DNA from: a virus
Lineage: Duplodnaviria; Heunggongvirae; Uroviricota; Caudoviricetes
DNA: 19,251 bases
Strand: one strand, 5' to 3'
IMG/VR virus record: IMGVR_UViG_3300037067_008629
Span: 2,827-22,077 of that record
Below are positions 1,355 to 16,883 of this stretch, piece after piece. Within the stretch, counting starts at the first letter, position 1. Every line of letters starts with the position of its first letter. Below the pieces are notes generated by a model, which saw only the letters and a list, made by a program, of their open reading frames with translations, searched no databases and was not told the origin of the DNA. Made by a program: the position numbers and the translations under genes.

Positions 1355-1908
1355 ACATACCTCTTAGTTGGAGTTTCAGACCAGCGATAACCTACATAAG
1401 GATTGTGCTGCTTAGGTTTACGCCACCATAAATCATCAGCGTTGTGATTTGCAATTCTTAAGTCTGACATTTCACAGTCTCGTAAAATAGGCAAATCCCA
1501 AGTCTGAAGAATATCATTTAAATCTTTTCGACAATATGGACAGCGACTTGCAAATTCAGCTTGGAAACCCTTGAGGAGCAATGCTGCACGGTGAGAACTA
1601 TGAAATGCATCGTCGCCGAGCCGTGGTGGTATCGGTGAATTCTTATCGGCATACATATCAAAATACTGCATTAGATTGTCATTATATCCTCTTTGTACCC
1701 ACTCAAAACTCATTGTATGCCCATAAAGAGCGAGTTGCCCCGCATATCCCACCCACATCTTAACGGCTGGATGATGTTGCCAAGCTGTTGATTGACCAAG
1801 TAATACTTGAAGAATCTGCTTGGCTTCAACTCGCTGTTTTCCAAGACGTTGACGATCAAGGATTTTGGCAGATTTAAGATAACCGGGATAAGGTAAAAAG
1901 GTTTGCAT
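1330..1908 (-). CDS. pyrimidine dimer DNA glycosylase / MSMEG_6728-like protein
   Basis: MQTFLPYP...LDRQRLGKQRVEAKQIL...W.HHPAVKMWVGY...EWVQRGY...SHRAALL...YVWP is the pattern of this family. Start set at ATG 1908 (MQTF), not TTG 1926. Confidence 0.85.
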   Translation of the reverse strand: MQTFLPYPGYLKSAKILDRQRLGKQRVEAKQILQVLLGQSTAWQHHPAVKMWVGYAGQLALYGHTMSFEWVQRGYNDNLMQYFDMYADKNSPIPPRLGDDAFHSSHRAALLLKGFQAEFASRCPYCRKDLNDILQTWDLPILRDCEMSDLRIANHNADDLWWRKPKQHNPYVGYRWSETPTKRYVWPTVQLS

Positions 1909-1942
1909 ATTAATACTATACCACAAATTTAGCGGTTGTCAA
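1909..1942 (-). promoter_or_regulatory. sigma70-type promoter, family copy A; predicted leaderless start
   Basis: TTGACA (1942-1937), 16-nt spacer ending TGTGG, TATAGT (1920-1915), 6 nt, then ATG 1908. The -35 overlaps the TGA stop of the upstream gene. Confidence 0.8.
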
Positions 1943-3691: not shown

Positions 3692-4227
3692 TTAGGTCCA
3701 CATATACGACTTAATAACTATTAAACGATGCAGATTCCTTTCTAACTCTTTTTCAACATCAGCATCAAGCTTCTGTAACTTCTTAAATCCATCAGATATG
3801 CTTGCTTGTCATCTTCTGTTGCCCATTGAGGGCACCATTCATCATACTCATCATTCATGGGCACCCAATCCACAACAGGATTGTGCTTTTCGATTTCTTT
3901 CCAAATCGCCTCACTATCAACTTCATATTGTTTGTTATAATAGTTATTCCACCAATCATATAACTCCTGCATTTCTTTACGAGCGGCCTTGTGATGCTCG
4001 GTTGCATCCCAATCAACGTTACCGGGTGAACATTCCTTCTCAATAAATTGAGATAGAATCTCAAACATCATATGTGGTAGCAATGAGCAACGGTCACACC
4101 AAGTATGTGGAAGATAACGTGGTTTGATCGTTGTATGCCGATGCCAGCAAAAACATTTGATACGATACCATATTTCGCCTAAACGCCAGTTGTAAGGAAT
4201 CTTACAATATAATTCTTTAAGTTTCAT
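3692..4227 (-). CDS. hypothetical phage protein with a -1 frame discontinuity near 3750-3790 (frameshift, indel or pseudogene)
   Basis: The 0 frame stops at TAG 3742. The -1 frame reads FKKLQKLDADVEKELERNLHRLIVIKSYMWT* to TAA 3692-3694, 2 nt before the protease ATG. Confidence 0.6.
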
Positions 4228-4411
4228 TTTTATCAGCCATCCAATTGTTGTGTTTTAAGTATAGCATCATTCTACGCTGTTTGTCCCAAATAAACACTTT
4301 GTATATACCCTGATTTTTTCTTAATACAATAAGAAAATCTTTGGCAGCTTGTTTATCATTAGTTGTCCAAGTATGCGTGACACCACCGACAAACCAAATT
4401 ACTACATACAC
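4217..4411 (-). CDS. hypothetical protein
   Basis: 64-aa ORF with a GTG start; overlaps both neighbours. Confidence 0.55.
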   Translation of the reverse strand: MYVVIWFVGGVTHTWTTNDKQAAKDFLIVLRKNQGIYKVFIWDKQRRMMLYLKHNNWMADKNET

Positions 4412-4599
4412 TTTGCTACCTCACAGTAAAAATTAGGGAACGCTTCGTTGCCAACAAGCGTCACTTCAGTTACTTGGCATGGCCACTGTATTTTATGCTC
4501 AAAAAGTTTTTGATAAAAAGAAATTTTCAACACATCCCCAACTTCTAAATGCGGAAGAGATGTCCAACTTGTAAATAGTGGGTATGTCTTAGTCGTCAT
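4402..4599 (-). CDS. hypothetical protein
   Basis: ORF track 4402..4653. Start moved to ATG 4599 (MTTKTYP), which has SD GGAG 7 nt upstream and avoids a long overlap with the 4589..4729 gene. Confidence 0.6.
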   Translation of the reverse strand: MTTKTYPLFTSWTSLPHLEVGDVLKISFYQKLFEHKIQWPCQVTEVTLVGNEAFPNFYCEVAKCM

Positions 4600-4729
4600 G
4601 ATATAGCTCCAACGCATAGCTATACCCGTCCCAATTATCCACTCCAGCGGCAATTAATGCGTCTAATAAACGCTCAGAGTCCATTAGGCGGTCATATTCG
4701 TCTTTTGAAATAGTTACTTCATCACTCAT
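4589..4729 (-). CDS. small phage protein with GVDNW motif (46 aa, absent from ORF track)
   Basis: MSDEVTISKDEYDRLMDSERLLDALIAAGVDNWDGYSYALELYHDD*. Strong SD AAGGAG. L.AL..AGVDNW.GY is a motif I recognise from small phage proteins. Confidence 0.85.
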   Translation of the reverse strand: MSDEVTISKDEYDRLMDSERLLDALIAAGVDNWDGYSYALELYHDD

Positions 4730-4881
4730 TTTATATACTCCTTGTACCAGCCACCCAGCATCAATGGCAATAGTTGTAAATACGCAAAACCATATAAACC
4801 ACAGTTAAAGAAATCATGTACTTCAACTATACTAGTTTTCCCCGCTTGAATACCAACGTCGAGTGTATAAGCCCAGGATAA
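4726..4881 (-). pseudogene. C-terminal fragment of an ATP-grasp (R2K/DUF4343-like) gene, no start codon of its own
   Basis: The open frame reads LSWAYTLDVGIQAGKTSIVEVHDFFNCGLYGFAYLQLLPLMLGGWYKEYIK*. AYTLDVG...EVHDFF.CGLYG resembles that family's C-terminus. Its TGA forms an ATGA overlap with the next gene. Confidence 0.55.
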
Positions 4882-5009
4882 TCATGTTCAATCCCAATAA
4901 ATGAATCATAGGTATCCCCGATACTAAAACCACCGTTTTTTGCAACAATAACATATCTGCCAATAATGTCTTCGATAGTATATTGATTAAATTTAGCTTG
5001 TTCCATCAT
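4827..5009 (-). CDS. hypothetical protein (60 aa); overlaps the ATP-grasp fragment
   Basis: SD GGAG and an ATGA overlap with the upstream gene. Confidence 0.6.
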   Translation of the reverse strand: MMEQAKFNQYTIEDIIGRYVIVAKNGGFSIGDTYDSFIGIEHDYPGLIHSTLVFKRGKLV

Positions 5010-6424: not shown

Positions 6425-6820
6425 TTAAGATATAAGGTACTCTTTCCATTTATGACCAACATCAATTGTTGCAGCATTATCTTTTAATTGTGATGTAGGT
6501 ATTAAATATTTCTCACCCGTATCTGTCAGAATAAATAAAAGTTCGCTAGTCGTTTTATCAAAATAATGAGAAATTCCAGACCAACTTTGATTTCCACCAT
6601 TTGTCTTTAAAATTACAGTAAAACTACCTGAAGCCCTTCTATTAGTCGAGGTTTTAACTTGCACTCGCTGTAAATTCTTATCTTTTTCCACTATTAAATC
6701 ATAGCGTTGACTTTCTGATATTGGTATACTAACAGAATAGTCATTATTCATAAACCAACTAATAGCAACACCTACGCCAATGTCGCCTTGTTTTCTAGGA
6801 TTTGATCGTTTAATAGTCAT
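6425..6820 (-). CDS. PD-(D/E)XK endonuclease, I-Ssp6803I / PDDEXK_5-like (putative free-standing homing endonuclease)
   Basis: KQGDIGV...VSIP...RYDLIVE...RVQVKT is the PD-(D/E)xK pattern typical of the group I intron-associated family. Confidence 0.8.
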   Translation of the reverse strand: MTIKRSNPRKQGDIGVGVAISWFMNNDYSVSIPISESQRYDLIVEKDKNLQRVQVKTSTNRRASGSFTVILKTNGGNQSWSGISHYFDKTTSELLFILTDTGEKYLIPTSQLKDNAATIDVGHKWKEYLIS

Positions 6821-6952: not shown

Positions 6953-7330
6953 TCAATTGAACAGTTTGAGGTATGAAAGAACCAACCCGATGATAAATCC
7001 TACTGCCGAGCCAACTAGCACCCTAGCGACAAGGGCACGATCAGAATTATCAAAGTTGTCACAGATACTAAGCCTCTGTACAGGCACTTCATCCGCCTCT
7101 TGCATAAGCCCAAGTGCTTCCTTCCACTCGTCTGGTATCTCAGATTCAGTTACCTCTTGACCTAAATCTGAGACTTGAAAAACTTGGTCGGTAATCTTGC
7201 CAGTGGCATCGGGACCCAAGCCACAAACCAAGACGCTTGGTGATACTCGTGAGCCACGTACATAAATTGCCTTTGTAGGATAGACAACAGCGTATTCGCT
7301 ATTTGTAGTTTTATAATATTGTTTACGCAT
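6953..7330 (-). CDS. hypothetical protein with C-terminal transmembrane helix
   Basis: 125-aa ORF ending LVARVLVGSAVGFIIGLVLSYLKLFN. Confidence 0.7.
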   Translation of the reverse strand: MRKQYYKTTNSEYAVVYPTKAIYVRGSRVSPSVLVCGLGPDATGKITDQVFQVSDLGQEVTESEIPDEWKEALGLMQEADEVPVQRLSICDNFDNSDRALVARVLVGSAVGFIIGLVLSYLKLFN

Positions 7331-7331
7331 A

Positions 7332-7673
7332 TTAATTTGCTAAACTAAAAATTTCCTCAAAAACGCGAGAAACCTTAACTGGTCCATGGACCAAGATAGC
7401 CTGTAATACTCTATCCATAATATAACATTTTAAAGAGGTTGTAAAATGTGTGTTATTAGGGCCACCTACAAAATTTATCATCATCGGTGATGTATCAATA
7501 TTATGTGTGCCCATCTTATAAAACTGAACAAGTTTTCTTAAGGTACATTTACCTTGCTTACCAATAATGATAAATTCATCACCAGTCATTTCCAGTGAGT
7601 TTAACAAGATATAGGCGTCCACTAGTATCATATCTGCCAGTAGATTCTCAATAGCCCACAAATGTCCTTTCAT
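7332..7673 (-). CDS. hypothetical protein
   Basis: 113-aa ORF with an ATGA overlap to the upstream gene. Confidence 0.7.
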   Translation of the reverse strand: MKGHLWAIENLLADMILVDAYILLNSLEMTGDEFIIIGKQGKCTLRKLVQFYKMGTHNIDTSPMMINFVGGPNNTHFTTSLKCYIMDRVLQAILVHGPVKVSRVFEEIFSLAN

Positions 7674-7936
7674 ATCGACAGCATCCTCGAATGATTATCA
7701 TAAGCATCCAATGCTGCTAAAACATTTGGAATTGATTCTTTGTACTCTGGATGGTCTTTTACTATATCAAGTAGCCAAATAGCACAGTCTCGTGCTGCGT
7801 TCATTAGATTTTTACCGACACCTTTGACACTAGGCTTATAGCAAGTCGATACCATATAGTGTCCGTTCGCTCGGATATCAACCCGAATGCCCCCTTGAGC
7901 TTGTGCTAAAGCATTTAGTAGTTCTGCTTCTCTCAT
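7670..7936 (-). CDS. hypothetical protein
   Basis: 88-aa ORF; ATGA overlap with the def stop and a promoter-family copy directly upstream. Confidence 0.7.
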   Translation of the reverse strand: MREAELLNALAQAQGGIRVDIRANGHYMVSTCYKPSVKGVGKNLMNAARDCAIWLLDIVKDHPEYKESIPNVLAALDAYDNHSRMLSI

Positions 7937-8340
7937 ACTATAATCCTAGCACATATTTCTTGGTTTGTCAAGTCCCACGGTAATTTTCCATTTAAATGAT
8001 CCATTTCATGCTGTATAATAAACGCTTGTTGCTCAGCAAATACCCCCTCAGAAGTACTAATACGATTATATCGTTTACGAGTATAATCTACATTAGGAAG
8101 ACTGAGACACCCTTCATCTACATTTACTTCTTCTGAATAGTCATAAATAACAAGATTCTGAAATACTTGACCCCATGAGGTTACAAATAAATGTGCATCT
8201 AAACCAACTTGATTCGCAGCTAAGGCTATTCCACCTGACTGCCCTAATAGTATAAACATTTGATTAATTGTCTTTTGAGAGACAACAGCCCGTTTACACT
8301 TCATTAATAGAGCAGGGTCTGGATAAGTCAGTATTTGCAT
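7933..8340 (-). CDS. def: peptide deformylase (compact phage type)
   Basis: Motif 1 GIALAANQVG, motif 2 EGCLS, motif 3 QHEMDHLNG. Confidence 0.93.
   Translation of the reverse strand: MQILTYPDPALLMKCKRAVVSQKTINQMFILLGQSGGIALAANQVGLDAHLFVTSWGQVFQNLVIYDYSEEVNVDEGCLSLPNVDYTRKRYNRISTSEGVFAEQQAFIIQHEMDHLNGKLPWDLTNQEICARIIV
7937..7971 (-). promoter_or_regulatory. sigma70-type promoter, family copy C; predicted leaderless start
   Basis: TTGACA (7971-7966), 17-nt spacer ending TGTGC, TAGGAT (7948-7943), 6 nt (TATAGT), then ATG 7936. Encoded in the def C-terminal tail LTNQEICARIIV*. Confidence 0.7.
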
Positions 8341-8374
8341 ATTATAATTATACCACAGATTTTACGGTTGTCAA
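8332..8374 (-). repeat. 43-bp direct repeat, copy 1 (promoter D plus ATG CAA ATA of def)
   Basis: Checked base by base: identical to 9641-9683, with mismatching flanks on both sides. Confidence 0.97.
8341..8374 (-). promoter_or_regulatory. sigma70-type promoter, family copy D; predicted leaderless def mRNA
   Basis: TTGACA (8374-8369), 16-nt spacer ending TGTGG, TATAAT (8352-8347), a second TATAAT, then ATG 8340. Confidence 0.85.
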
Positions 8375-8520
8375 ATAGGTTGCATTTTATGCTGTTCTCT
8401 ATATTGTTGAATATGTAATTTTATATACTCAAGATGATACCACCTTGCGTCAATTGGTGGCCTATCAACAAATTCTAATGCCGATAGGTTTACACACTGC
8501 CTTTTCAATTGGTATGCCAT
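8371..8520 (-). CDS. candidate 49-aa protein overlapping the 3' end of the repeat gene (absent from ORF track)
   Basis: MAYQLKRQCVNLSALEFVDRPPIDARWYHLEYIKLHIQQYREQHKMQPI*. SD AGAGGA 6 nt upstream; the TGA stop lies within the -35 of promoter D. Confidence 0.4.
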   Translation of the reverse strand: MAYQLKRQCVNLSALEFVDRPPIDARWYHLEYIKLHIQQYREQHKMQPI

Positions 8521-9598
8521 TATTTATCCTCTGTCTAAGCATAGTTGTTGTGACTTGACAACGTAAATCTCTTGATACTGAACCTAGGGATGGGAACCAT
8601 TCTCCCCAAACAAAAAACTTTTTCTGTCGGCCCACTGCTCTATTTACTGCTTCATGGAGTGGTATACCCCTCTGGATTCTACCTCTAAGATTATCTAGAG
8701 ATACTTGACAACGAGCATCTTCTGCAACACATCGTAAAGAAGGGAACTTTTTGTTCCAGACAAAAAATCCAACTGACTTAGCAACTGGCTTAGCAACTGG
8801 CTTAGCAACTATTGACCTATTTTTTACTCTATGGCAAAGTGTGGTATAGGATACTTGACAGCGTGGGTCCTTAGCAACTTCTGCTAAAGAAGAAAACCAT
8901 TCTCCCCAGACTAAAAACTTTTCTTTTTGAATATTCTTCTGAGTTGCTTCTTCAAGTGTCAATCCATTATGGAATCTACGCCAAAGTGTTGTAAAAGATA
9001 CTTGACAACGTGGGTCTATAGATATAGCTTTTAAAGAAGGAAACTCTTTTCCCCACACAAAAAATGTTTCTTTTTTAACTGCCTCTTCGATTGTAATATT
9101 TTGTTTCATTCTATGTTTCAAGGTATCATAGGTTACTTGACATCTTGAATCATTTGCAATTGCTGTTAAAGATGGAAACTGTTCCTCCCAAACTGTGTAA
9201 AATTTTCCTAATCTGCCTATCCTGGGATTAAGAGCTTCTTCAATAGATAATCCATACTTGAGCCGTTTATACAATTGTTTGCTTGTAATTTTACATCTTG
9301 AGTCATTTAATACTGCTGTAATTGATGGAAATTTTTCACCCCAAACAACACACTCTCTACGTCTATTTTGATTTTTTACAGCTTGCTCAATTGTAACACC
9401 TTTTTGGACTTTTTGACACAGAGTTATATAATGAACCTCACACCGGCTGTCTTTGGCAATAGCATTTAATGATGAAAACCATTCATTCCAAACAAAAAAT
9501 CTATTAACCTTTAATTGAGTACTTTTAACTTCAGTACTAGGAATAGTTGCACAAGGTATTTTCTGTAATAAATTATCAGGTATTTTAATCGCTGGCAT
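8465..9598 (-). CDS. tandem-repeat protein with seven ~45-50-aa HTH-like modules; putative DNA-binding protein
   Basis: Consensus F-x-V-W-G-x-x-F-P-S-L-x-x-V/I-x-x-D-x-R-C-Q-V-S/T-x-x-x-L-x-x-R-x-x-x-G-x-x-x-E-x-A-V occurs 7 times. The CQV codons recur at 135-150 bp spacing (8555, 8705, 8855, 9002, 9137). Confidence 0.85.
   Translation of the reverse strand: MPAIKIPDNLLQKIPCATIPSTEVKSTQLKVNRFFVWNEWFSSLNAIAKDSRCEVHYITLCQKVQKGVTIEQAVKNQNRRRECVVWGEKFPSITAVLNDSRCKITSKQLYKRLKYGLSIEEALNPRIGRLGKFYTVWEEQFPSLTAIANDSRCQVTYDTLKHRMKQNITIEEAVKKETFFVWGKEFPSLKAISIDPRCQVSFTTLWRRFHNGLTLEEATQKNIQKEKFLVWGEWFSSLAEVAKDPRCQVSYTTLCHRVKNRSIVAKPVAKPVAKSVGFFVWNKKFPSLRCVAEDARCQVSLDNLRGRIQRGIPLHEAVNRAVGRQKKFFVWGEWFPSLGSVSRDLRCQVTTTMLRQRINNGIPIEKAVCKPIGIRIC
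8777..8810 (+). repeat. 12-bp tandem repeat (about 2.8 copies) encoding VAKP VAKP VAKS
   Basis: cttagcaactgg cttagcaactgg cttagcaact. Confidence 0.95.
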
Positions 9599-9616
9599 AA
9601 TATTTTGCCTTATGAA

Positions 9617-9649
9617 TTATTTATCAAATACATGCACAAATATTTGCAT
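9617..9649 (-). other. 10-codon upstream mini-ORF MQIFVHVFDK
   Basis: Starts at the ATG inside repeat copy 2 and shares its first three codons with def. Ends TAA 9619-9617, 18 nt before the repeat-protein ATG. Confidence 0.55.
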
Positions 9650-9683
9650 ATTATAATTATACCACAGATTTTACGGTTGTCAA
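9641..9683 (-). repeat. 43-bp direct repeat, copy 2 (promoter E plus ATG CAA ATA)
   Basis: Identical to 8332-8374; offset 1,309 bp. Confidence 0.97.
9650..9683 (-). promoter_or_regulatory. sigma70-type promoter, family copy E
   Basis: Same sequence as copy D. Encoded by the last codons of the 9657..9947 gene (LTTVKSVV*), whose TAA lies in the -10. Confidence 0.85.
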
Positions 9684-9947
9684 GCGAACCCCAGGTAATA
9701 TCTTATCAGGAGAAATTCCATTAGGATCAGCAAGAAATATCCTTCTTAGGAATTGACTGGACCGGCCATTATTAGGCGTCTCAGGAAAAAGTGTAGCATA
9801 CCCAACACACACTCGTGGCTTCCTTGTCCGGCTTCTAGTTACTACAATCTTCTCAATTACTTTTATGTCTTTAAGCAGCACAAGCCAAACAATAGCGTCT
9901 TCATACTGATAGGCATTTGTTTGAACTAATCTAAATCCTTCTCTCAT
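9657..9947 (-). CDS. hypothetical protein
   Basis: 96-aa ORF with SD GGAG 6 nt upstream. Confidence 0.7.
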   Translation of the reverse strand: MREGFRLVQTNAYQYEDAIVWLVLLKDIKVIEKIVVTRSRTRKPRVCVGYATLFPETPNNGRSSQFLRRIFLADPNGISPDKILPGVRLTTVKSVV

Positions 9948-9948
9948 A

Positions 9949-10809
9949 TTAGACTCCTACTGGTGGACTAACATTATAACGACTATGTACAACACCTAAT
10001 TCACCCGACCCTCTTTGGTGTTGTGGAACCCAGAATCGACCATAGACTCCACGGCCAAACATTCCAGGACCATCTTCCTTATAATGCATAAAATGCCCAC
10101 GACAAATATGCAATCGTTGTTGAATATCAGTTGAAGTTGGATTTGGATTTCGTCTGATTGTCGTTGGCTGAATATTTATCGTATGGTAAGAAACTTGCGG
10201 TACTTTGGTTCTACGATACCATTTTGCTGGTTGTGCATATTCATCTGTATCGTCTTGAATGGTAACATTCTTGCAATTCATAAATGATAAAGTATGTGCA
10301 ATAACACATGGTATACTAAAGGAAGTATCTTTATTACGAACTACACCCAGTATACTACCATTTGAATCTAGGCCAATTACAAATTCGCATCCAATAGTTG
10401 AAATTCTATTATTGACAAAATGAAATACAAATCCGCGAAGTTCACATTGTGTCTCTGGAGGTAGATTCTTAGTTAAATGTTTATTGACTAGTACTAGAAG
10501 CACACCAACTTGCGATGTATTTTGTCCTGACTTTATACCCTCTATTGGATCATAATTATTAATCCACTCAATAAAACATGCTTCAAATGGAGGTTTACCA
10601 CATCCCTGTCTTATATCATAGGCACTCAAAGGCTTATCTGCTGGAAATAAATACTTCTCAATATTATCAGCTATAATTATAGGTAAAGTATTTTTTTGTA
10701 GTCCAGTTATAAAGCTATGCATAATTTTTTCCCAAGTTGGATTATCAGCCAATTCTTTGGGTTGAAACGTACTTTTTTGTAATAAAATTCTATCAGCTAA
10801 TCTCAACAT
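9949..10809 (-). CDS. conserved-looking phage hypothetical protein
   Basis: 286 aa with SD GGAG. The C-terminal RLHICRGHF.HY...FWVP.H.RG..E.G.V...Y motif is recognisable from uncharacterised phage proteins. Confidence 0.8.
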   Translation of the reverse strand: MLRLADRILLQKSTFQPKELADNPTWEKIMHSFITGLQKNTLPIIIADNIEKYLFPADKPLSAYDIRQGCGKPPFEACFIEWINNYDPIEGIKSGQNTSQVGVLLVLVNKHLTKNLPPETQCELRGFVFHFVNNRISTIGCEFVIGLDSNGSILGVVRNKDTSFSIPCVIAHTLSFMNCKNVTIQDDTDEYAQPAKWYRRTKVPQVSYHTINIQPTTIRRNPNPTSTDIQQRLHICRGHFMHYKEDGPGMFGRGVYGRFWVPQHQRGSGELGVVHSRYNVSPPVGV

Positions 10810-10810
10810 C

Positions 10811-11353
10811 TTAATCTCCTGTTATAATACACGAATACCAGATATTGTCCTTGCCTCTCGCCATATCGGCTCCAAAGTATTTATGTTTCTTTGAGGCTGT
10901 CTTCCAATGTCCAGGCGATTGTCTCCAAGAGGTAAACATTTCGGTCCCTAAATCAAACATGGAATCGTCTTTTTGACGTTCCCAAGATTCGGCAGCGATT
11001 TCCGAATAAGCATATTTTCCTAATGTTTTGTATAATTCTTCAACACGCTCTTGAAACTTTTGATGACCTTGTTGTCGATGGTCTGCCTGATATTTTGCAT
11101 GTCGGGCGGCCATTTCCATAAGTACTGGATTTTGTTCTGATTCACATACATGCGCACCTGCAAATACTTTACCGGCTTCGATTAAACCAATCTGACTTGG
11201 TGTCAATAAGCTAGGTATGATATTATAATCAGGTATGATATTGTAATCTGGCACATCCATCCATAGATGACTACAGTTTGAGCAACTGTAACTTGTTCTC
11301 AAACAGAATACAGAATTGACAAAACCACACTTTGGGCAGATTACATCTTTCAT
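10811..11353 (-). CDS. Zn-ribbon plus CAP (SCP-like) domain protein
   Basis: N-terminal CPKC...CSNC, followed by A.RHA.Y...H...EI.A...W..SPGH...FG..MA, the CAP-domain pattern. Confidence 0.7.
   Translation of the reverse strand: MKDVICPKCGFVNSVFCLRTSYSCSNCSHLWMDVPDYNIIPDYNIIPSLLTPSQIGLIEAGKVFAGAHVCESEQNPVLMEMAARHAKYQADHRQQGHQKFQERVEELYKTLGKYAYSEIAAESWERQKDDSMFDLGTEMFTSWRQSPGHWKTASKKHKYFGADMARGKDNIWYSCIITGD
11213..11248 (+). repeat. 18-bp tandem duplication encoding PDYNII twice
   Basis: aggtatgatattataatc / aggtatgatattgtaatc (1 mismatch). Confidence 0.9.
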
Positions 11354-11511
11354 TGAACTGCCTTTGAGGTTGCTTTGTAAACATCGGTCATCCCTTGATT
11401 ACCAATAGCCATACCACACAAAAAACTACCTCTTGTAATTCCCCAAAGAATTCCAAGACCCAGAATGGGTACTACATAACAAACCATCAAACATTTTAGA
11501 ATTATATTCAC
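11350..11511 (-). CDS. small membrane protein
   Basis: ORF track 11350..11553. GTG 11511 forms a GTGA overlap with the nrdJ stop; the N-terminal half is hydrophobic. Confidence 0.55.
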   Translation of the reverse strand: MNIILKCLMVCYVVPILGLGILWGITRGSFLCGMAIGNQGMTDVYKATSKAVQ

Positions 11512-14500
11512 GAGCAACCTCCTGAAGAACCACACCCATAACACAGGTAACAACTACCAACCCGTACACAGAGTTGGCCACAATTATCACAGATTGGTGC
11601 ATCTAGCGTACCAACTGAGGGACTATTTACATCTACTGGAATATTAGTTGTAAAATGATTTGCCAACCAGCGGAAAATATAATCAACAATTGACTTAGCA
11701 ATCTTTATATCTTTATTTTTCGTAAAGCCCATGGGCTCAAAACGTACATGAGTAAACTTATCAATAAATTCGCTCAGAGGTACACCATACTGTAGGCCAA
11801 TTGAAGTTGCCAGTCCAAAGCAATCAAATATACCGCCTAATGTACTCCCTTCTTTGGCTACTGATATAAAAATCTCTCCAGGTTTACCATCGGGATACAA
11901 ACCTACTGTGAAATAACCTTTATGGCCATCAATAGTAAACTTGTGTGTGATACTCTCCCGAGTATCAGGCAAACGATTCCGGATGCTAGTAGGGAGCAAT
12001 TCTTTCTTAATATTTAATGGCTGATAACCTTTGCTACCATCACGATAAATGGCCATTGACTTTAAACCTAGTTTCCAACCCAGCATATAAGCTTCTTGAA
12101 TATCGTCAATCGTTGAATCAGTTGGCATATTGATTGTCTTTGAGATTCCACCACTTAAAAATGGTTGTGCTGCTGCCATCATTTTTAGATGTGCTTGCCA
12201 AGGAATCTGATTATCTCCCAAGGAAGTTGCAAATACTTTTAATTCACTATTGGTTAAATACGGGTCTCCGATTAAAGTTTCAGTTGTTTCTAAGCGACTT
12301 AAAATACTTGTTTGTAGCTGTTCACTAATTCCTAAGGACCTCAGCCCCGCTTCTACAGATTGATTTACAAGCTTCAATGTACCACCACCAACAAGCGTCT
12401 TAGTTTTCACTAACGCAAGCTCTGGTTCAATTCCAGTTGTATCGCAATCCATTAGGAAACTAATGGTTCCAGTTGGAGCACAAAGAGTTACTTGCGAGTT
12501 ACGAAAGGACTTACAGACTAAAACTTCTTGCCATAAATTATCAGTGCCAATAGTTTGCGGATTTGCAGCAGCGTGCTTTTTTAATACTTTACCCATACTA
12601 ACTTTATCATAGGCTTCAAATGCTCCAAGTTCTTTCGCTATTTCTGCACTGGTCAAGTATGCCCTAGCAGTAAGAGTTGATGTAATCTTGCTGCAGAGTT
12701 GTCGCGATTCGTCCGAGTCATACGGTAACCCCATTGACATCAAAAGAGCACCAAGATTTGTAAATCCAAGACCTAATTGTCGGCAAGTATGTGCATTTCG
12801 GGCAATCTCTTCAAGTGGATAACTTGCCTGATCTACTAAGATATCTTGTGCAATAATAAGAATTCTTACAACTTTTTGAAACGTATCGTAATCAAATTGA
12901 CCATTCTTAAGAAATTTCAATAAGTTTATAGATGCCAAGTTACAGGCTGAACCGTTAGGTGCTAGAAATTCTGAATTATGCACCACAAGTCCATGTCTAT
13001 TACCAGAAGATGATACTACAAAATTATGTGTCCCTTCGACTTCCATATCATAGACTGGTACTCTTTTTTCTAAATGAATAAAGTCAACATTTTCGACTAC
13101 ATCATTTGTTAAATCTCTATTTTCATTAACCCATTGACAAAGTTCGGACCAACTTTGCCCTTGAATTGATTTACAATTAGCGGTGGGTAAGATATTGCTT
13201 AATTTCCATAGTTTTATATATTTATTCCAAAGAGCGGCACTAACATACCCATACATATCTTCAATAGTTTCATAGAATTCTACTAATGCTTCTGGTTCTA
13301 CATTAAGATAACGTGGATTATTCTTTCCCTTGGAATGCCCAGATAAATGTAAAAATTTTGATTTTAATTGTAAGTTTGAAAAACTATAGTTCTCAAGACT
13401 TTCATCAATATGATGGACGTGATAGTCATTAGAGACTGTGGTTCCTGTCGTCTGTTCATAAACAAAACGATGTAAATACTGACAACCATTAGGATGCTGT
13501 TTGGTACATTTATGATTTAACATTAAAACACCACGTCTACGTGGATTTTCTTTGATACTTAGTTTCTTGAGTCGATGCCCCGGCCTCAAATATTTTGCTT
13601 CTAATGTGTCTCCTTGGCGGGTGTAGAATAAATGTTCCGGCGTACAAGTTACAACAATACCCTTATTCGTAGTTACTTTAATTAAATTCTGTGTATATCC
13701 TGATCGCCAAATACGTTTTATTGTTTTTAGTACTGGTAAATTGGTGTCTAAATCATAGCTGAATACTTTTATATTATTTGCCCGCTTTTTAACCAGTTGA
13801 TTAAATGTTAGTTTACCTTCATTTGTGATGATTTCCGTGTCACCTGTGAAGCAACACGGATTTGAAGAATTGATTCTACCAACATGTGGTACAGTATTAT
13901 AATTATTGATAGTAGTTGAATACTGAACACCCGGATCACCACAGAGCCACGTACTCTCAGCAATCTTCTTCCATAAATCTCGTGCTTTAAATACTGGTCC
14001 ATTTTGTCCAGTAGTTACCCATTTAGTCACCCACTCCGTATCATTCTTAACAGCTTGCATAAATTCATCAGAAATTTGAATGCTAATATTCATATTCTGA
14101 TACATAACGGATTTTGCTGCCCGCTCTGGAGTTACACCACTCGCAATTAATAATCTTGCATGGGCTTCTTCTTCAGCTTTGCAGCTAATAAACTTATCAA
14201 TATCTGGGTGGTCAATGTTGAGACAATGTAACAATGCTGCCCTGCGAGTCCGACCTGCTGAAGTTACAACCTCTGCAACTTGGTCATAGATTCTCATAAA
14301 ACTAAGTGGACCAGATGAATGGCCACCGCCACTAATACCCTCGCATGTTGCACGTAATGGAGATAAGTTTGTACCTGTTCCAGAGCCAAACTTAAATAAC
14401 ATAGCATCGGTCTGAGCCAGGCCCATGATGCTATCCATATTGTCCTCAACGCCTTGGATAAAACAAGCAGAACCTTGTGGGTATTCAAATGGATTCTGAC

Positions 14501-14927
14501 AAGGTTCGACCTGCTGAGATTCCTTATTCCAATACCAATTACATGGCTCACCTATGACTCCATATTTTTGATAGAGTCCTACATTAAACCACACAGGTGA
14601 ATTAAATGCACAGTATTGATGCAATAATAACCATGTTAAATCATCACAAAACTCTGTACTATTTTCAAAGTAGCCATCTTCTACGCCCCATTGTGAAATT
14701 GTATCCGCAACTCTTGAAACTAATTGCTGGATGCTTGTTTCTCGGTCTGGAGTTCCAATTGCACCGTAGAAATATTTACTGGCAGCAATATTTACCGCCA
14801 TTTGAGACCAGCTGCTAGGTGCAAGAACATTTTCTTGTCGAAAAATTACCTTATCACCCTGCTTTATTTCAGCAGTCCTCTTTTCCCAAGTAATCGGTTC
14901 GCCACTAAATTGTCGCTCGTAATTCAT
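11508..14927 (-). CDS. nrdJ: adenosylcobalamin-dependent (class II) ribonucleotide reductase with intein
   Basis: AFNSPVWFN, SACFI, GSGTG, NPC|SE, ACNLASINL and APTGTISF motifs; TSCPD-like C-terminal domain and terminal Cys cluster; SD AAGGA. Confidence 0.96.
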   Translation of the reverse strand: MNYERQFSGEPITWEKRTAEIKQGDKVIFRQENVLAPSSWSQMAVNIAASKYFYGAIGTPDRETSIQQLVSRVADTISQWGVEDGYFENSTEFCDDLTWLLLHQYCAFNSPVWFNVGLYQKYGVIGEPCNWYWNKESQQVEPCQNPFEYPQGSACFIQGVEDNMDSIMGLAQTDAMLFKFGSGTGTNLSPLRATCEGISGGGHSSGPLSFMRIYDQVAEVVTSAGRTRRAALLHCLNIDHPDIDKFISCKAEEEAHARLLIASGVTPERAAKSVMYQNMNISIQISDEFMQAVKNDTEWVTKWVTTGQNGPVFKARDLWKKIAESTWLCGDPGVQYSTTINNYNTVPHVGRINSSNPCCFTGDTEIITNEGKLTFNQLVKKRANNIKVFSYDLDTNLPVLKTIKRIWRSGYTQNLIKVTTNKGIVVTCTPEHLFYTRQGDTLEAKYLRPGHRLKKLSIKENPRRRGVLMLNHKCTKQHPNGCQYLHRFVYEQTTGTTVSNDYHVHHIDESLENYSFSNLQLKSKFLHLSGHSKGKNNPRYLNVEPEALVEFYETIEDMYGYVSAALWNKYIKLWKLSNILPTANCKSIQGQSWSELCQWVNENRDLTNDVVENVDFIHLEKRVPVYDMEVEGTHNFVVSSSGNRHGLVVHNSEFLAPNGSACNLASINLLKFLKNGQFDYDTFQKVVRILIIAQDILVDQASYPLEEIARNAHTCRQLGLGFTNLGALLMSMGLPYDSDESRQLCSKITSTLTARAYLTSAEIAKELGAFEAYDKVSMGKVLKKHAAANPQTIGTDNLWQEVLVCKSFRNSQVTLCAPTGTISFLMDCDTTGIEPELALVKTKTLVGGGTLKLVNQSVEAGLRSLGISEQLQTSILSRLETTETLIGDPYLTNSELKVFATSLGDNQIPWQAHLKMMAAAQPFLSGGISKTINMPTDSTIDDIQEAYMLGWKLGLKSMAIYRDGSKGYQPLNIKKELLPTSIRNRLPDTRESITHKFTIDGHKGYFTVGLYPDGKPGEIFISVAKEGSTLGGIFDCFGLATSIGLQYGVPLSEFIDKFTHVRFEPMGFTKNKDIKIAKSIVDYIFRWLANHFTTNIPVDVNSPSVGTLDAPICDNCGQLCVRVGSCYLCYGCGSSGGCS
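12975..13853 (-). mobile_element. intein with HNH endonuclease in NrdJ (293 aa, residues 359-651)
   Basis: Begins CFTGDT and ends VYDMEVEGTHNFVV...VVHN, followed by Ser. Block B CTPEHLF; HNH-type LHRFVYE...VHHIDE..EN....NL. Confidence 0.95.
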
Positions 14928-15257: not shown

Positions 15258-16883
15258 TTATTCCAAATTAATTTGTAAAAGTTGATCGCCAAATACCGCA
15301 GGTAATGCTTTACCAAATTCTATTAGCACACCTTGCATTAACTGTCGAATTTGCCACTGTGCATGTTTATTCAAAGCTCTTTGAATAAAAATTGACCTCC
15401 ATTGACGTAGATTAGCTGTCATTACGATTTCAGTTTTAGTAGCATTAGGAAGACATTCACGAGCATCTTCTGGTGGAATACCTTTCTTAAGATAATATAA
15501 ATACTCCAGATAATTATCTGCACGACTAGCAAGCCACGTCCTACTTGGTCCAGTAAACCAATTATCTGGATACTTTTCTAAGAATTTATCATCCATATAA
15601 AAATTAAAGGTATTAACATCCAAAAAATGATAAGGACCACAGGGGATTCCAATCTTTGGTGGGCATATTACTTGAAAACCTTTTTTAGAGTAATTTACAA
15701 ATCTCTGTGATTCTTGGCAATTGTGGACAACAAAACCATTGGCGACAAAATTATGCCAAGGTGCTTCCATTTCAATATCATATGTCTCAGTTACTTTGTC
15801 AGGAATAATTGAGATTATGGTGTCTGAAAATACAGATTGTACGGCCTGACCGAAGTGAAATTGTTTATGACAGGGCTCGCAAAGAATACAAATATTGTCG
15901 GGCGTGTTATTTAAAGTATCTCCATCTTTATGGTGTCTAACAAGTCTCGCCTCTGTGGTGCCACAAGTAAAACATTGAATTGCCTTATATAATCTATTAG
16001 CCCGACAACGACCTGACATTGGTGTAGCATTCTCGCCCTTCCACATTGGGTTTTTAGCACCCAAATGTATTTTTGATAAATATTCAATAGCCTCAGGGGA
16101 AAACATTCCCTTTGTGCCATGTCCAGGGCGTCTATTAGGCCGCATTGAATGTGGCTTTTGTAAACCAAAATGACGTAACCATTTTCCGAGAAAAGATTCA
16201 CTCACTCCCGCTTTTTTAGCTACTTCTGCTCGGGTTAAATTTTGTCTAAGATAAAGATTTTCCAACCATTCTTTATTTTTGTAAGCCAAAAGTCCGTTAG
16301 CAATAATCTTATCTCCGGGCTTTAATTGTGAGAGTTTTTTCCACCCATTAGGCGTCAAAAATCTATGGTTAGCTGTTGCTCGAATATCTCGGCCAAATTC
16401 AGAAGTCACTTTATAGACTTGTTGCCGTCCACTATAGCTAATAGACTTTATTCCATTGGCAATTAAAACCCCCTCCGAATTCACACTTCGTAATTTAATT
16501 AGTTTTAATCGTCCTTTTCTCTTTGGATCAAGAGACATGTTATAAAGCTGTTCTAAAGTCCAACGTTTTGCATGGTGTCGTTTCGCACTAGGCATTGATA
16601 CCACAGTAGTATCTCCGGCGAGACAATATGAAGCAATTCTATGCCGAACGAGTTGATGGCTCATTGACCGTGAGCCAATAATTCGTACACTTGCTGAAAC
16701 ATGCTCTAATACACTATCATGCCCTAAATCTCGAATCATTTTAACAAACTTAGATGCTGAATCATTAGTGATTCTATCTTCACTTTTATAGGCCGTTCTA
16801 CCCGCTAACTCCAATAACTTCAAATGCTCATCATTTAGTGGAGTTAAAATCTCAATTCTCGGTGGAACTACTGTTATTAACAT
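15258..16883 (-). CDS. thyX: FAD-dependent thymidylate synthase with intein
   Basis: GH.SVLEH, the RHR-X7-S motif (RHRIASY|CQES), EDARECLP...TEIVMTANLRQWR and HAQWQIR. Confidence 0.95.
   Translation of the reverse strand: MLITVVPPRIEILTPLNDEHLKLLELAGRTAYKSEDRITNDSASKFVKMIRDLGHDSVLEHVSASVRIIGSRSMSHQLVRHRIASYCLAGDTTVVSMPSAKRHHAKRWTLEQLYNMSLDPKRKGRLKLIKLRSVNSEGVLIANGIKSISYSGRQQVYKVTSEFGRDIRATANHRFLTPNGWKKLSQLKPGDKIIANGLLAYKNKEWLENLYLRQNLTRAEVAKKAGVSESFLGKWLRHFGLQKPHSMRPNRRPGHGTKGMFSPEAIEYLSKIHLGAKNPMWKGENATPMSGRCRANRLYKAIQCFTCGTTEARLVRHHKDGDTLNNTPDNICILCEPCHKQFHFGQAVQSVFSDTIISIIPDKVTETYDIEMEAPWHNFVANGFVVHNCQESQRFVNYSKKGFQVICPPKIGIPCGPYHFLDVNTFNFYMDDKFLEKYPDNWFTGPSRTWLASRADNYLEYLYYLKKGIPPEDARECLPNATKTEIVMTANLRQWRSIFIQRALNKHAQWQIRQLMQGVLIEFGKALPAVFGDQLLQINLE
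15720..16625 (-). mobile_element. intein with HNH endonuclease in ThyX (302 aa, residues 87-388)
   Basis: Begins CLAGDT and ends TYDIEMEAPWHNFVANGFVVHN, followed by Cys. Block B ATANHRF; HTH-like LTRAEVAKKAGVSESFLGKWLR; HNH C..C...RHHKDGDTLNN..DNI..LC..CH..FH. Confidence 0.95.

Follow-up and report, generated by a model that had tools for sequence, protein, structure and literature searches.

T4-type phages contain promoter early stem-loop elements (PeSLs), in which a strong sigma-70-like early promoter, present in repeated copies, stands next to a stem-loop. PeSLs flank ORFans, mark the breakpoints of insertions and deletions (indels) between related phages, and recombine to mini-circles, no dedicated recombinase being involved (Arbiol, Comeau & Krisch 2010, PMC2839356; Comeau et al. 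2014, PMC4122927). Here we describe a locus that shares part of this design in an uncultured long-tailed phage of the Caudoviricetes. The stretch of DNA analysed, called the window below, is 19,251 nucleotides long and corresponds to positions 2,827 to 22,077 of the IMG/VR virus record IMGVR_UViG_3300037067_008629, an 86,077-bp contig from a metagenome assembly that is about 64% complete; all genes of the window are on the minus strand. In the window, an additional gene for a protein of seven repeated modules (the cargo gene) separates a gene for a 96-residue protein from def, the gene for peptide deformylase, and is bounded by two identical 43-bp copies of the def promoter and start codon. 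The locus is a clean case of a known way in which phages gain and lose genes, and not a new mobile-element system.

The likeness to PeSLs lies in a strong sigma-70-like promoter repeat that flanks a non-essential gene, in indel breakpoints that fall within the promoter motif and in the absence of a dedicated recombinase from the 86-kb contig. As with PeSLs, the cargo acquires a promoter and the downstream gene retains one. Unlike in PeSLs, no stem-loop or terminator half was found at this locus, and the repeat is situated within the 3'-terminal part of a coding gene and takes in a start codon, the mRNA being predicted to be leaderless. Furthermore, there is a single flanking pair, 100% identical, instead of a multi-copy array, and the phage is not of the T4 type.

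Extra genes that come with a promoter and sit between two genes adjacent in related phages are called morons, a descriptive class that carries no requirement for flanking repeats. Morons of lambdoid and other tailed phages were reportedly described by Juhala and co-workers and by Hendrix and co-workers, both in 2000. The cargo gene and its promoter, placed between genes that are neighbours in relatives, constitute a moron in this sense. Unlike in other morons, no clear terminator is present, the G+C content resembles that of the surroundings instead of deviating from it, and the promoter duplicates the one already resident.

Phages also carry free-standing homing endonuclease genes, such as the seg and mob genes of T4 (Edgell, Gibb & Belfort 2010, PMC2988022; Barth et al. 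2023, PMC10448857). Such genes enter promoter-bearing sites and may displace the promoters there (PMC2988022). The cargo gene is likewise a single gene between conserved genes, its modules are shared with GIY-YIG, LAGLIDADG and HNH endonucleases, and its insertion into a promoter-bearing gap raises the same problem of promoter displacement. It differs from these genes in having neither a nuclease domain nor a co-conversion tract, and in being flanked by a 43-bp duplication, which is not a product of homing.

Integron cassettes and clusters of attC sites lacking integrases (CALINs) also place a promoter-dependent gene unit between repeated sites, from which it could in principle be excised as a circle, and an integron-like mechanism had been proposed for this locus in the original prediction, which was made from the sequence without database searches. 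This proposal is not supported, as the features that define integrons are missing. No tyrosine or serine recombinase was detected in the available 86 kb, where searches for Phage_integrase, Resolvase, RecT, ERF and RecA gave no match; the cargo ends have neither inverted terminal repeats nor an attC-like inverted repeat or imperfect palindrome, and the flanking repeats are identical promoters in direct orientation, not tyrosine-recombinase sites. The absence of any integrase, transposase or nuclease gene inside the inserted unit, which had also been stated, is borne out. A target-site duplication of the transposon or insertion-sequence type was considered and rejected, given that no transposase or terminal inverted repeats are present and that the duplication is too long; usual target-site duplications are far shorter than 43 bp.

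The duplicated def promoter and the empty site

The two copies of the repeat, at positions 8332–8374 and 9641–9683, are identical at 43 of 43 positions and form the longest exact direct repeat of the 86,077-bp contig, for which about 5e-16 pairs are expected by chance. On the minus strand, each copy consists of a -35 box (TTGACA), a 16-nt spacer ending in TGG (which makes a TG-extended -10), a -10 box (TATAAT), six nucleotides and the codons ATG CAA ATA. It thus extends from the -35 box to the third codon of def, in agreement with the original prediction. In a promoter scan both copies score 12 of 12 hexamer positions, and the window contains no other site that does. Immediately outside the 43 bp, the identity between the two copies falls to 27–35% on both sides, which is random level.

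The upstream copy, copy A (9641–9683; all features of the locus are on the minus strand), has its -35 box at 9678–9683 and its extended -10 box at 9656–9661. It spans the final nine codons and the stop codon of the gene for the 96-residue protein (9657–9947), which has a weak DUF6009-like match and is conserved in relatives, where its gene directly precedes def. The promoter of copy A is now the predicted driver of a leaderless upstream open reading frame (uORF) of 10 codons (9617–9649), of which codons 1–3 are the duplicated start of def, and of the cargo gene itself (8465–9598, 377 amino acids). The uORF stops 18 nt ahead of the cargo ATG, and an AAGG Shine-Dalgarno-like motif is found at 9608–9611. 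We considered the uORF as a diverged remnant of the 5' end of def; beyond the repeat 8 of 18 nucleotides match, which is not significant, and the idea was dropped. The cargo gene is followed by an AT-rich 3' untranslated stretch (8375–8464). It is overlapped by an open reading frame of 49 codons (8371–8520), which is without family match and is probably non-coding. This inventory agrees with the one first proposed. The unique inserted DNA measures 1,266 bp (8375–9640) and is absent from all relatives found. Copy B of the repeat (8332–8374) stands directly before def (7933–8340), whose 135-residue product matches the Pfam family Pep_deformylase with an E-value of 9e-20; an exact-protein look-up of this product returned no record. 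The layout supports the suggestion that the cargo would gain a promoter while def keeps one.

The corresponding empty site is present in related phages. Only six relatives of the 96-residue protein were found among 5.8 billion proteins. Six contigs (L003 to L008), from JGI, ENA and Logan assemblies of several samples, contain a gene for an 81–82% identical homologue of 94 to 96 residues with one promoter written into its end, followed by def and free of cargo; where a full def frame was called, its ATG is located 7 nt past the stop codon of the homologue. An allele of this composition, with the 96-residue protein gene, one promoter and an intact def, had been anticipated in the original prediction. 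At the DNA level, the homology to the relatives runs from the 96-residue protein gene into copy A and is taken up again at base 1 of copy B, from where it extends into def; it is contiguous on the upstream side of copy A and on the downstream side of copy B, and segment 6259–6303 of L003 aligns with both copies. The homology breaks are exactly the borders of the repeat. The insertion amounts to 1,309 bp, of which 1,266 bp are unique cargo and 43 bp the additional copy. By sequence comparison, the cargo unit is a real insertion relative to the related phages that carry the empty allele. In more distant relatives (62–65% identical in the 96-residue protein), a ribosome-binding site and a different gene follow the gene for this protein, and neither def nor the cargo is present there.

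The promoter of def is orthologous in the relatives and differs from that of the window at 7 of 43 positions, six in the spacer and the seventh in the third codon; at all seven, the two window copies agree with each other. The flanking DNA is about 80% identical to that of the relatives, which comprise two empty-site lineages that are 91% identical to each other. At a divergence of about 16%, the probability that 43 sites remain unchanged is about 6e-4, so that the duplication is younger than the split between the window phage and its relatives, or else the copies have been homogenised. Copies that had been apart ever since that split would be expected to differ at several positions of the spacer.

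Both junctions are also present in a Logan assembly of run SRR18595300, which may or may not be independent of the source sample. In this assembly, the cargo gene is located at 73–1206 of a 1,326-bp contig, a position that agrees with its 42-nt leader. The length of the contig is that of a k=31 unitig of the 1,266-bp cargo with repeat on both sides (1,266 + 2 x 30), and the contig confirms both repeat-cargo junctions, with at least 30 nt of repeat on each side. As the repeat is 43 bp long, k=31 contigs cannot show an empty-site variant or a circle junction.

Several features place the start of def at the ATG of the repeat: the Pfam match begins at residue 2, no Shine-Dalgarno motif is present and an in-frame stop codon lies just upstream. 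With six nucleotides between the -10 box and the ATG, transcription is expected to start at the A of the ATG, and the def mRNA is predicted to be leaderless. Leaderless translation requires a 5'-terminal AUG. The promoter belongs to a family of similar promoters (TTGACA, 16–17 nt with TG, -10 box, 5–6 nt, ATG), which are kept at orthologous positions in the relatives. In this phage, the sequence common to the family is limited to the segment from TTGACA through ATGC(A/G)AAA. Five or six members are located in the window, and a single pair of them encloses an inserted gene. Just one further site in the contig comes close to the repeat (1900–1942, minus strand); it is identical at 35 of 43 positions, is the predicted leaderless promoter of a Pyr_excise-like gene and is conserved in L003; the remaining family promoters differ from the repeat at a minimum of 8 of 43 positions. 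Among metagenome contigs, a search with a degenerate promoter pattern retrieved just the two empty-site relatives that were already known; among viral contigs, it retrieved nothing.

The inserted gene and its module family

The cargo protein starts with 33 amino-terminal residues, after which seven modules of about 49 residues each follow. The modules contain an invariant D-x-R-C motif and the pattern W-G-E-x-F-x-S-L. No Pfam domain was found in the 377 residues, and no nuclease domain or remnant of one. In four relatives of the protein, identified by sequence, 2 to 10 such modules follow other domains. In P0002 and P0003 the modules are carboxy-terminal to a GIY-YIG domain and in P0004 to a LAGLIDADG domain, while the amino-terminal stretch of P0001 is HNH-like by eye only. 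The modules are also matched by PHROG 3377, annotated as 'HNH endonuclease'. A profile built from 24 modules retrieved 8,858 cluster representatives from 1.84 billion proteins, with up to 28 matched stretches per protein. About 80 of 96 high-scoring module proteins are without a Pfam domain, and a minority contain MTES_1575 or Vsr-type, GIY-YIG-type or T5orf172 domains. The product of 8465–9598 and proteins P0013–P0160 belong to a very large family of modules of about 47 residues that is without a Pfam model and is mostly stand-alone.

An AlphaFold (AF2) model of two modules, calculated on 98 aligned module pairs, has a pLDDT of 90, and each module in it is made up of a beta-hairpin and three helices. 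The model shows weak structural similarity (Z ~3) to the helix-turn-helix DNA-binding parts of I-TevI (PDB entry 1t2t, Z 3.2) and I-HmuI (PDB entry 1u3e, Z 2.7), and to a small DNA-binding protein of Paulinella. A Foldseek comparison of the two-module model with the PDB gave no match, and neither did a profile search of the PDB sequences with the modules; an AF2 model of the whole cargo protein, calculated without an alignment, has a pLDDT of 35. Taken from its sequence and the model, the cargo protein is a nuclease-free array of predicted DNA-binding modules, of a kind also used by homing endonucleases.

Other searches with the inserted DNA returned little. The stretch downstream of the cargo gene (8375–8464) contains only a weak hairpin, with a stem of 6 bp and a loop of 11 nt, that lacks a U tract (fold z -1.2), and a terminator scan makes no call there. 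Rfam gave a single sub-threshold match (20 bits against a cut-off of 45), which is situated outside the cargo and was judged to be due to chance, and PADLOC gave none. Single-protein scans of viral contigs with the cargo protein or the 96-residue protein, a blastn search of 7300–10900 against cultured phages and a blastn search of the non-coding cargo ends against this genome and all fetched loci were likewise without match. A tblastn search of the cultured phages with the cargo protein found one marginal match, to an unannotated fragment. Within the cargo gene (8550–9450, read on the plus strand), the codons for the invariant R-C-Q-V of each module read TTGACAACG in the opposite strand. This TTGACAACG is near-identical, inverted, to the 9-mer that opens the duplicated promoter, probably by coincidence.

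A gene with two of the same modules is bracketed by promoters in an unrelated, G+C-rich phage (L010, positions 3841–4558; also L011 and L012). It codes for the GIY-YIG protein P0003 and lies between two similar promoters. Judged by its start, six bases after TTGACT-16-TATACT, it would be leaderless, and its stop codon shares bases with the -35 box of the second promoter. The two promoters have a common 13-nt core, which occurs at only these two places in 9.5 kb. The collections contain no relatives of the neighbouring gene that could show an empty site, and the P0003 gene is a possible second example of a promoter-bracketed module gene, to be taken as a lead.

Origin of the insertion

Two features of the locus need explanation: the perfect identity of the two copies, and borders that coincide with the edges of the sequence common to the promoter family. 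We consider it probable that the cargo was gained once and, in evolutionary terms, recently, through insertion at the def promoter by general recombination that relied on homology within the promoter family, and that it is not an autonomous mobile element. In the ancestral state, the 96-residue protein gene would have ended within a strong consensus promoter from which transcription begins on the first base of the def start codon. A foreign unit of 1,266 bp, containing the leader and the seven-module gene, would then have been joined in by the general recombination or replication machinery of the phage or its host. The ends of the recipient DNA may have paired with the donor via the short sequence, from TTGACA to ATGCAAA, common to the leaderless promoters of this phage, after which non-homologous tails would be trimmed to the limits of homology and the cargo copied in. 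Each recipient end would keep its own full promoter, and the result would be two identical 43-bp copies with borders at the limits of the promoter-family homology. The coincidence of the borders with these limits also fits the recombination at the promoter motif envisaged in the original prediction.

Two other routes were considered, each of which explains one feature. A random illegitimate join followed by selection accounts for the identity of the copies and fails on their borders; a reciprocal crossover, be it with a circle or with a promoter of the donor, accounts for the borders and predicts chimeric copies. Annealing or invasion of the two recipient ends on family promoters of the donor would explain both features and is the most likely of these routes. 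Selection would also have acted on the product. If def is leaderless, it remains expressed only when the insertion restores the promoter immediately before the ATG, because without an adjacent promoter def would be within a longer transcript that has no ribosome-binding site for it. An insertion that does rebuild the promoter there would spare the carboxy-terminus of the 96-residue protein and leave both the cargo and def expressed. Incidentally, the perfect 43-bp repeats, 1.3 kb apart, would lend themselves to precise deletion, whether through homologous recombination or through single-strand annealing, and it is reasonable to regard precise excisability as one of their properties.

A number of points weigh against a single recent insertion by general recombination. 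With the contig about 64% complete, a recombinase could lie in the missing part. The two empty-site lineages (91% identical to each other and both about 80% to the window) form one clade, and parsimony cannot separate gain from loss. Gene conversion between the copies could be another source of their perfect identity. Leaderless transcription is predicted from spacing alone. Neither the cargo nor its non-coding flanks had a further copy in the searched collections, which makes promoter homology on the donor side a supposition. Finally, two of the approximately eight single-gene differences between the window and L003 are located at promoter-ATG junctions, which is not above chance (p estimated at about 0.3, assuming about five such promoters among 37 gene boundaries); without an excess of insertions at promoters, there is no evidence for general promoter targeting.

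It is unlikely that the cargo is an actively mobile promoter-bounded cassette of the PeSL type, which would be excised repeatedly as a 1,309-bp circle with one promoter and re-integrate at any family promoter, of this phage or of a co-infecting one. Integration under the PeSL mini-circle model would leave the order promoter-cargo-promoter, with an empty site in relatives, as is seen here, the family of similar promoters could provide landing sites, and the P0003 gene, with the same modules, likewise lies between two similar promoters. However, no second location of the cargo and no close copy of it was seen in any collection searched. Compared with L003, the window contains approximately eight single-gene insertions or replacements and two inteins, and a flanking repeat is present only at the def insertion, the other seven or so being without one; no other gene of the window is flanked by promoter repeats. 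The remaining family promoters, with at least 8 of 43 positions different, would be poor homology partners, the stem-loop half of a PeSL is absent, and a circle integrating at def would give chimeric copies unless it was derived from the same site. The repeatedly moving cassette of the original prediction is not supported by these findings, and nothing indicates its alternative, an accordion mechanism of changing copy number.

Descent from a free-standing homing endonuclease gene is equally doubtful. A gene for a nuclease with modules would have cut near the def promoter and been copied in by double-strand-break repair, and the nuclease would have been lost later, leaving the module array and the duplicated target. 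The modules are carboxy-terminal to GIY-YIG (P0002, P0003), LAGLIDADG (P0004) and HNH-type domains, with PHROG 3377 pointing the same way, and the best fold matches, weak as they are, are the DNA-binding parts of I-TevI and I-HmuI. Moreover, the window phage is rich in selfish elements that L003 lacks (two inteins and a PD-(D/E)XK gene), and free-standing endonuclease genes are known to sit between conserved genes and to displace promoters (PMC2988022). On the other hand, the cargo contains no trace of a nuclease: the first module is preceded by only 33 residues and the leader measures only 42 nt. With about 80 of the 96 high-scoring family members devoid of a Pfam domain, stand-alone arrays appear to be a normal form of the family. 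A co-conversion or donor-flank signature was looked for and not found in the flanks, where the identity to L003 beside the insertion is 0.78–0.88, as in the rest of these flanks. Homing would also explain the spread of a gene to a homologous site, not a 43-bp duplication at its first insertion.

It is still less probable that the cargo-bearing state is ancestral and that the relatives lost the cargo by precise deletion, the copies in the window being kept identical by conversion or by selection on the promoter. Given that the empty-site contigs form a single clade, a loss requires no more events than a gain, and precise deletion between 43-bp repeats would be scarless. However, the spacer varies freely between lineages (it contains six of the seven differences), so that selection alone would not hold 43 of 43 positions, and the distant relatives at 62–65% identity have neither the cargo nor def after the gene for the 96-residue protein. 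Conversion over just 43 bp with flanks at random level is possible and would require continual events.

A more speculative proposal, which we regard as very improbable, is that the seven-module protein itself recognises the segment of about 43 bp that contains promoter and start codon. At about 6 bp per module, seven modules would span about this length. The repeat would then be binding site, insertion target and expression signal in one, and the cargo a 'promoter-homing' gene that is mobilised in trans by a nuclease of this or a co-infecting phage and duplicates its target so that the leaderless gene survives. If this were true, the P0003 gene of L010 would be a second, nuclease-bearing example.

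Least probable of all is an assembly artefact in which the cargo was spliced in via a common 43-mer: the contig does come from a metagenome assembly, but two junctions would need to be wrong simultaneously, usual reads and the final k-mers of assemblers exceed the repeat in length, no reading frame or signal is disrupted, and the 1,326-bp Logan contig bounds the cargo by repeat on both sides.

Neighbouring differences and significance

A second insertion is found at the other end of def. A promoter of the family (promoter C, 7943–7971) lies inside the 3' end of def, and is followed by a gene for 88 residues (7670–7936) that the relatives lack; both are contained in 7670–7971 on the minus strand. 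In the relatives, promoter C is the predicted driver of a leaderless gene for 111 residues. In the window, the 88-residue protein gene is placed exactly between promoter C and the ATG of the displaced counterpart (113 residues), without duplication of the promoter. The displaced gene now has a GAGGA ribosome-binding site, ten bases upstream of its ATG, which comes from the insert. This would be a natural case of a gene changing over from leaderless translation to translation led by a Shine-Dalgarno motif. The two insertions behind predicted leaderless promoters appear to illustrate two routes by which a downstream gene can be kept translatable.

Other differences from L003 are located elsewhere in the window. 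The genes for a class II ribonucleotide reductase (11508–14927) and ThyX (15258–16883) each contain an intein of about 280–295 residues that is absent from L003; the one in the reductase matches HNH_3, and the one in ThyX gives helix-turn-helix matches. A gene for a PD-(D/E)XK endonuclease of 131 residues (PDDEXK_5, 6425–6820) is present where L003 has a short gap, and a homologue of it is found at another place in a more distant relative. Three small genes (4228–5005) replace a block of L003 (8925–10018) that contains an R2K-family gene, a T7 Gp5.9-like gene and a gene for 100 residues.

The locus provides a natural before-and-after pair for gene gain in a phage, with an empty site, a filled site and borders exact to the base, and the borders point to short promoter homology as a guide for recombination. 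With it, the PeSL idea would reach past T4-type phages and take in promoters joined to a start codon and lying within a coding gene. The module family, a very large family of tandem predicted DNA-binding modules linked to homing endonucleases and without a Pfam model, is worth study in itself. For the phage, the two insertions around def suggest a little-noted constraint on genome change: a gene with a leaderless mRNA may tolerate an insertion upstream of it only if its promoter is rebuilt, the alternative seen here being the supply of a ribosome-binding site.

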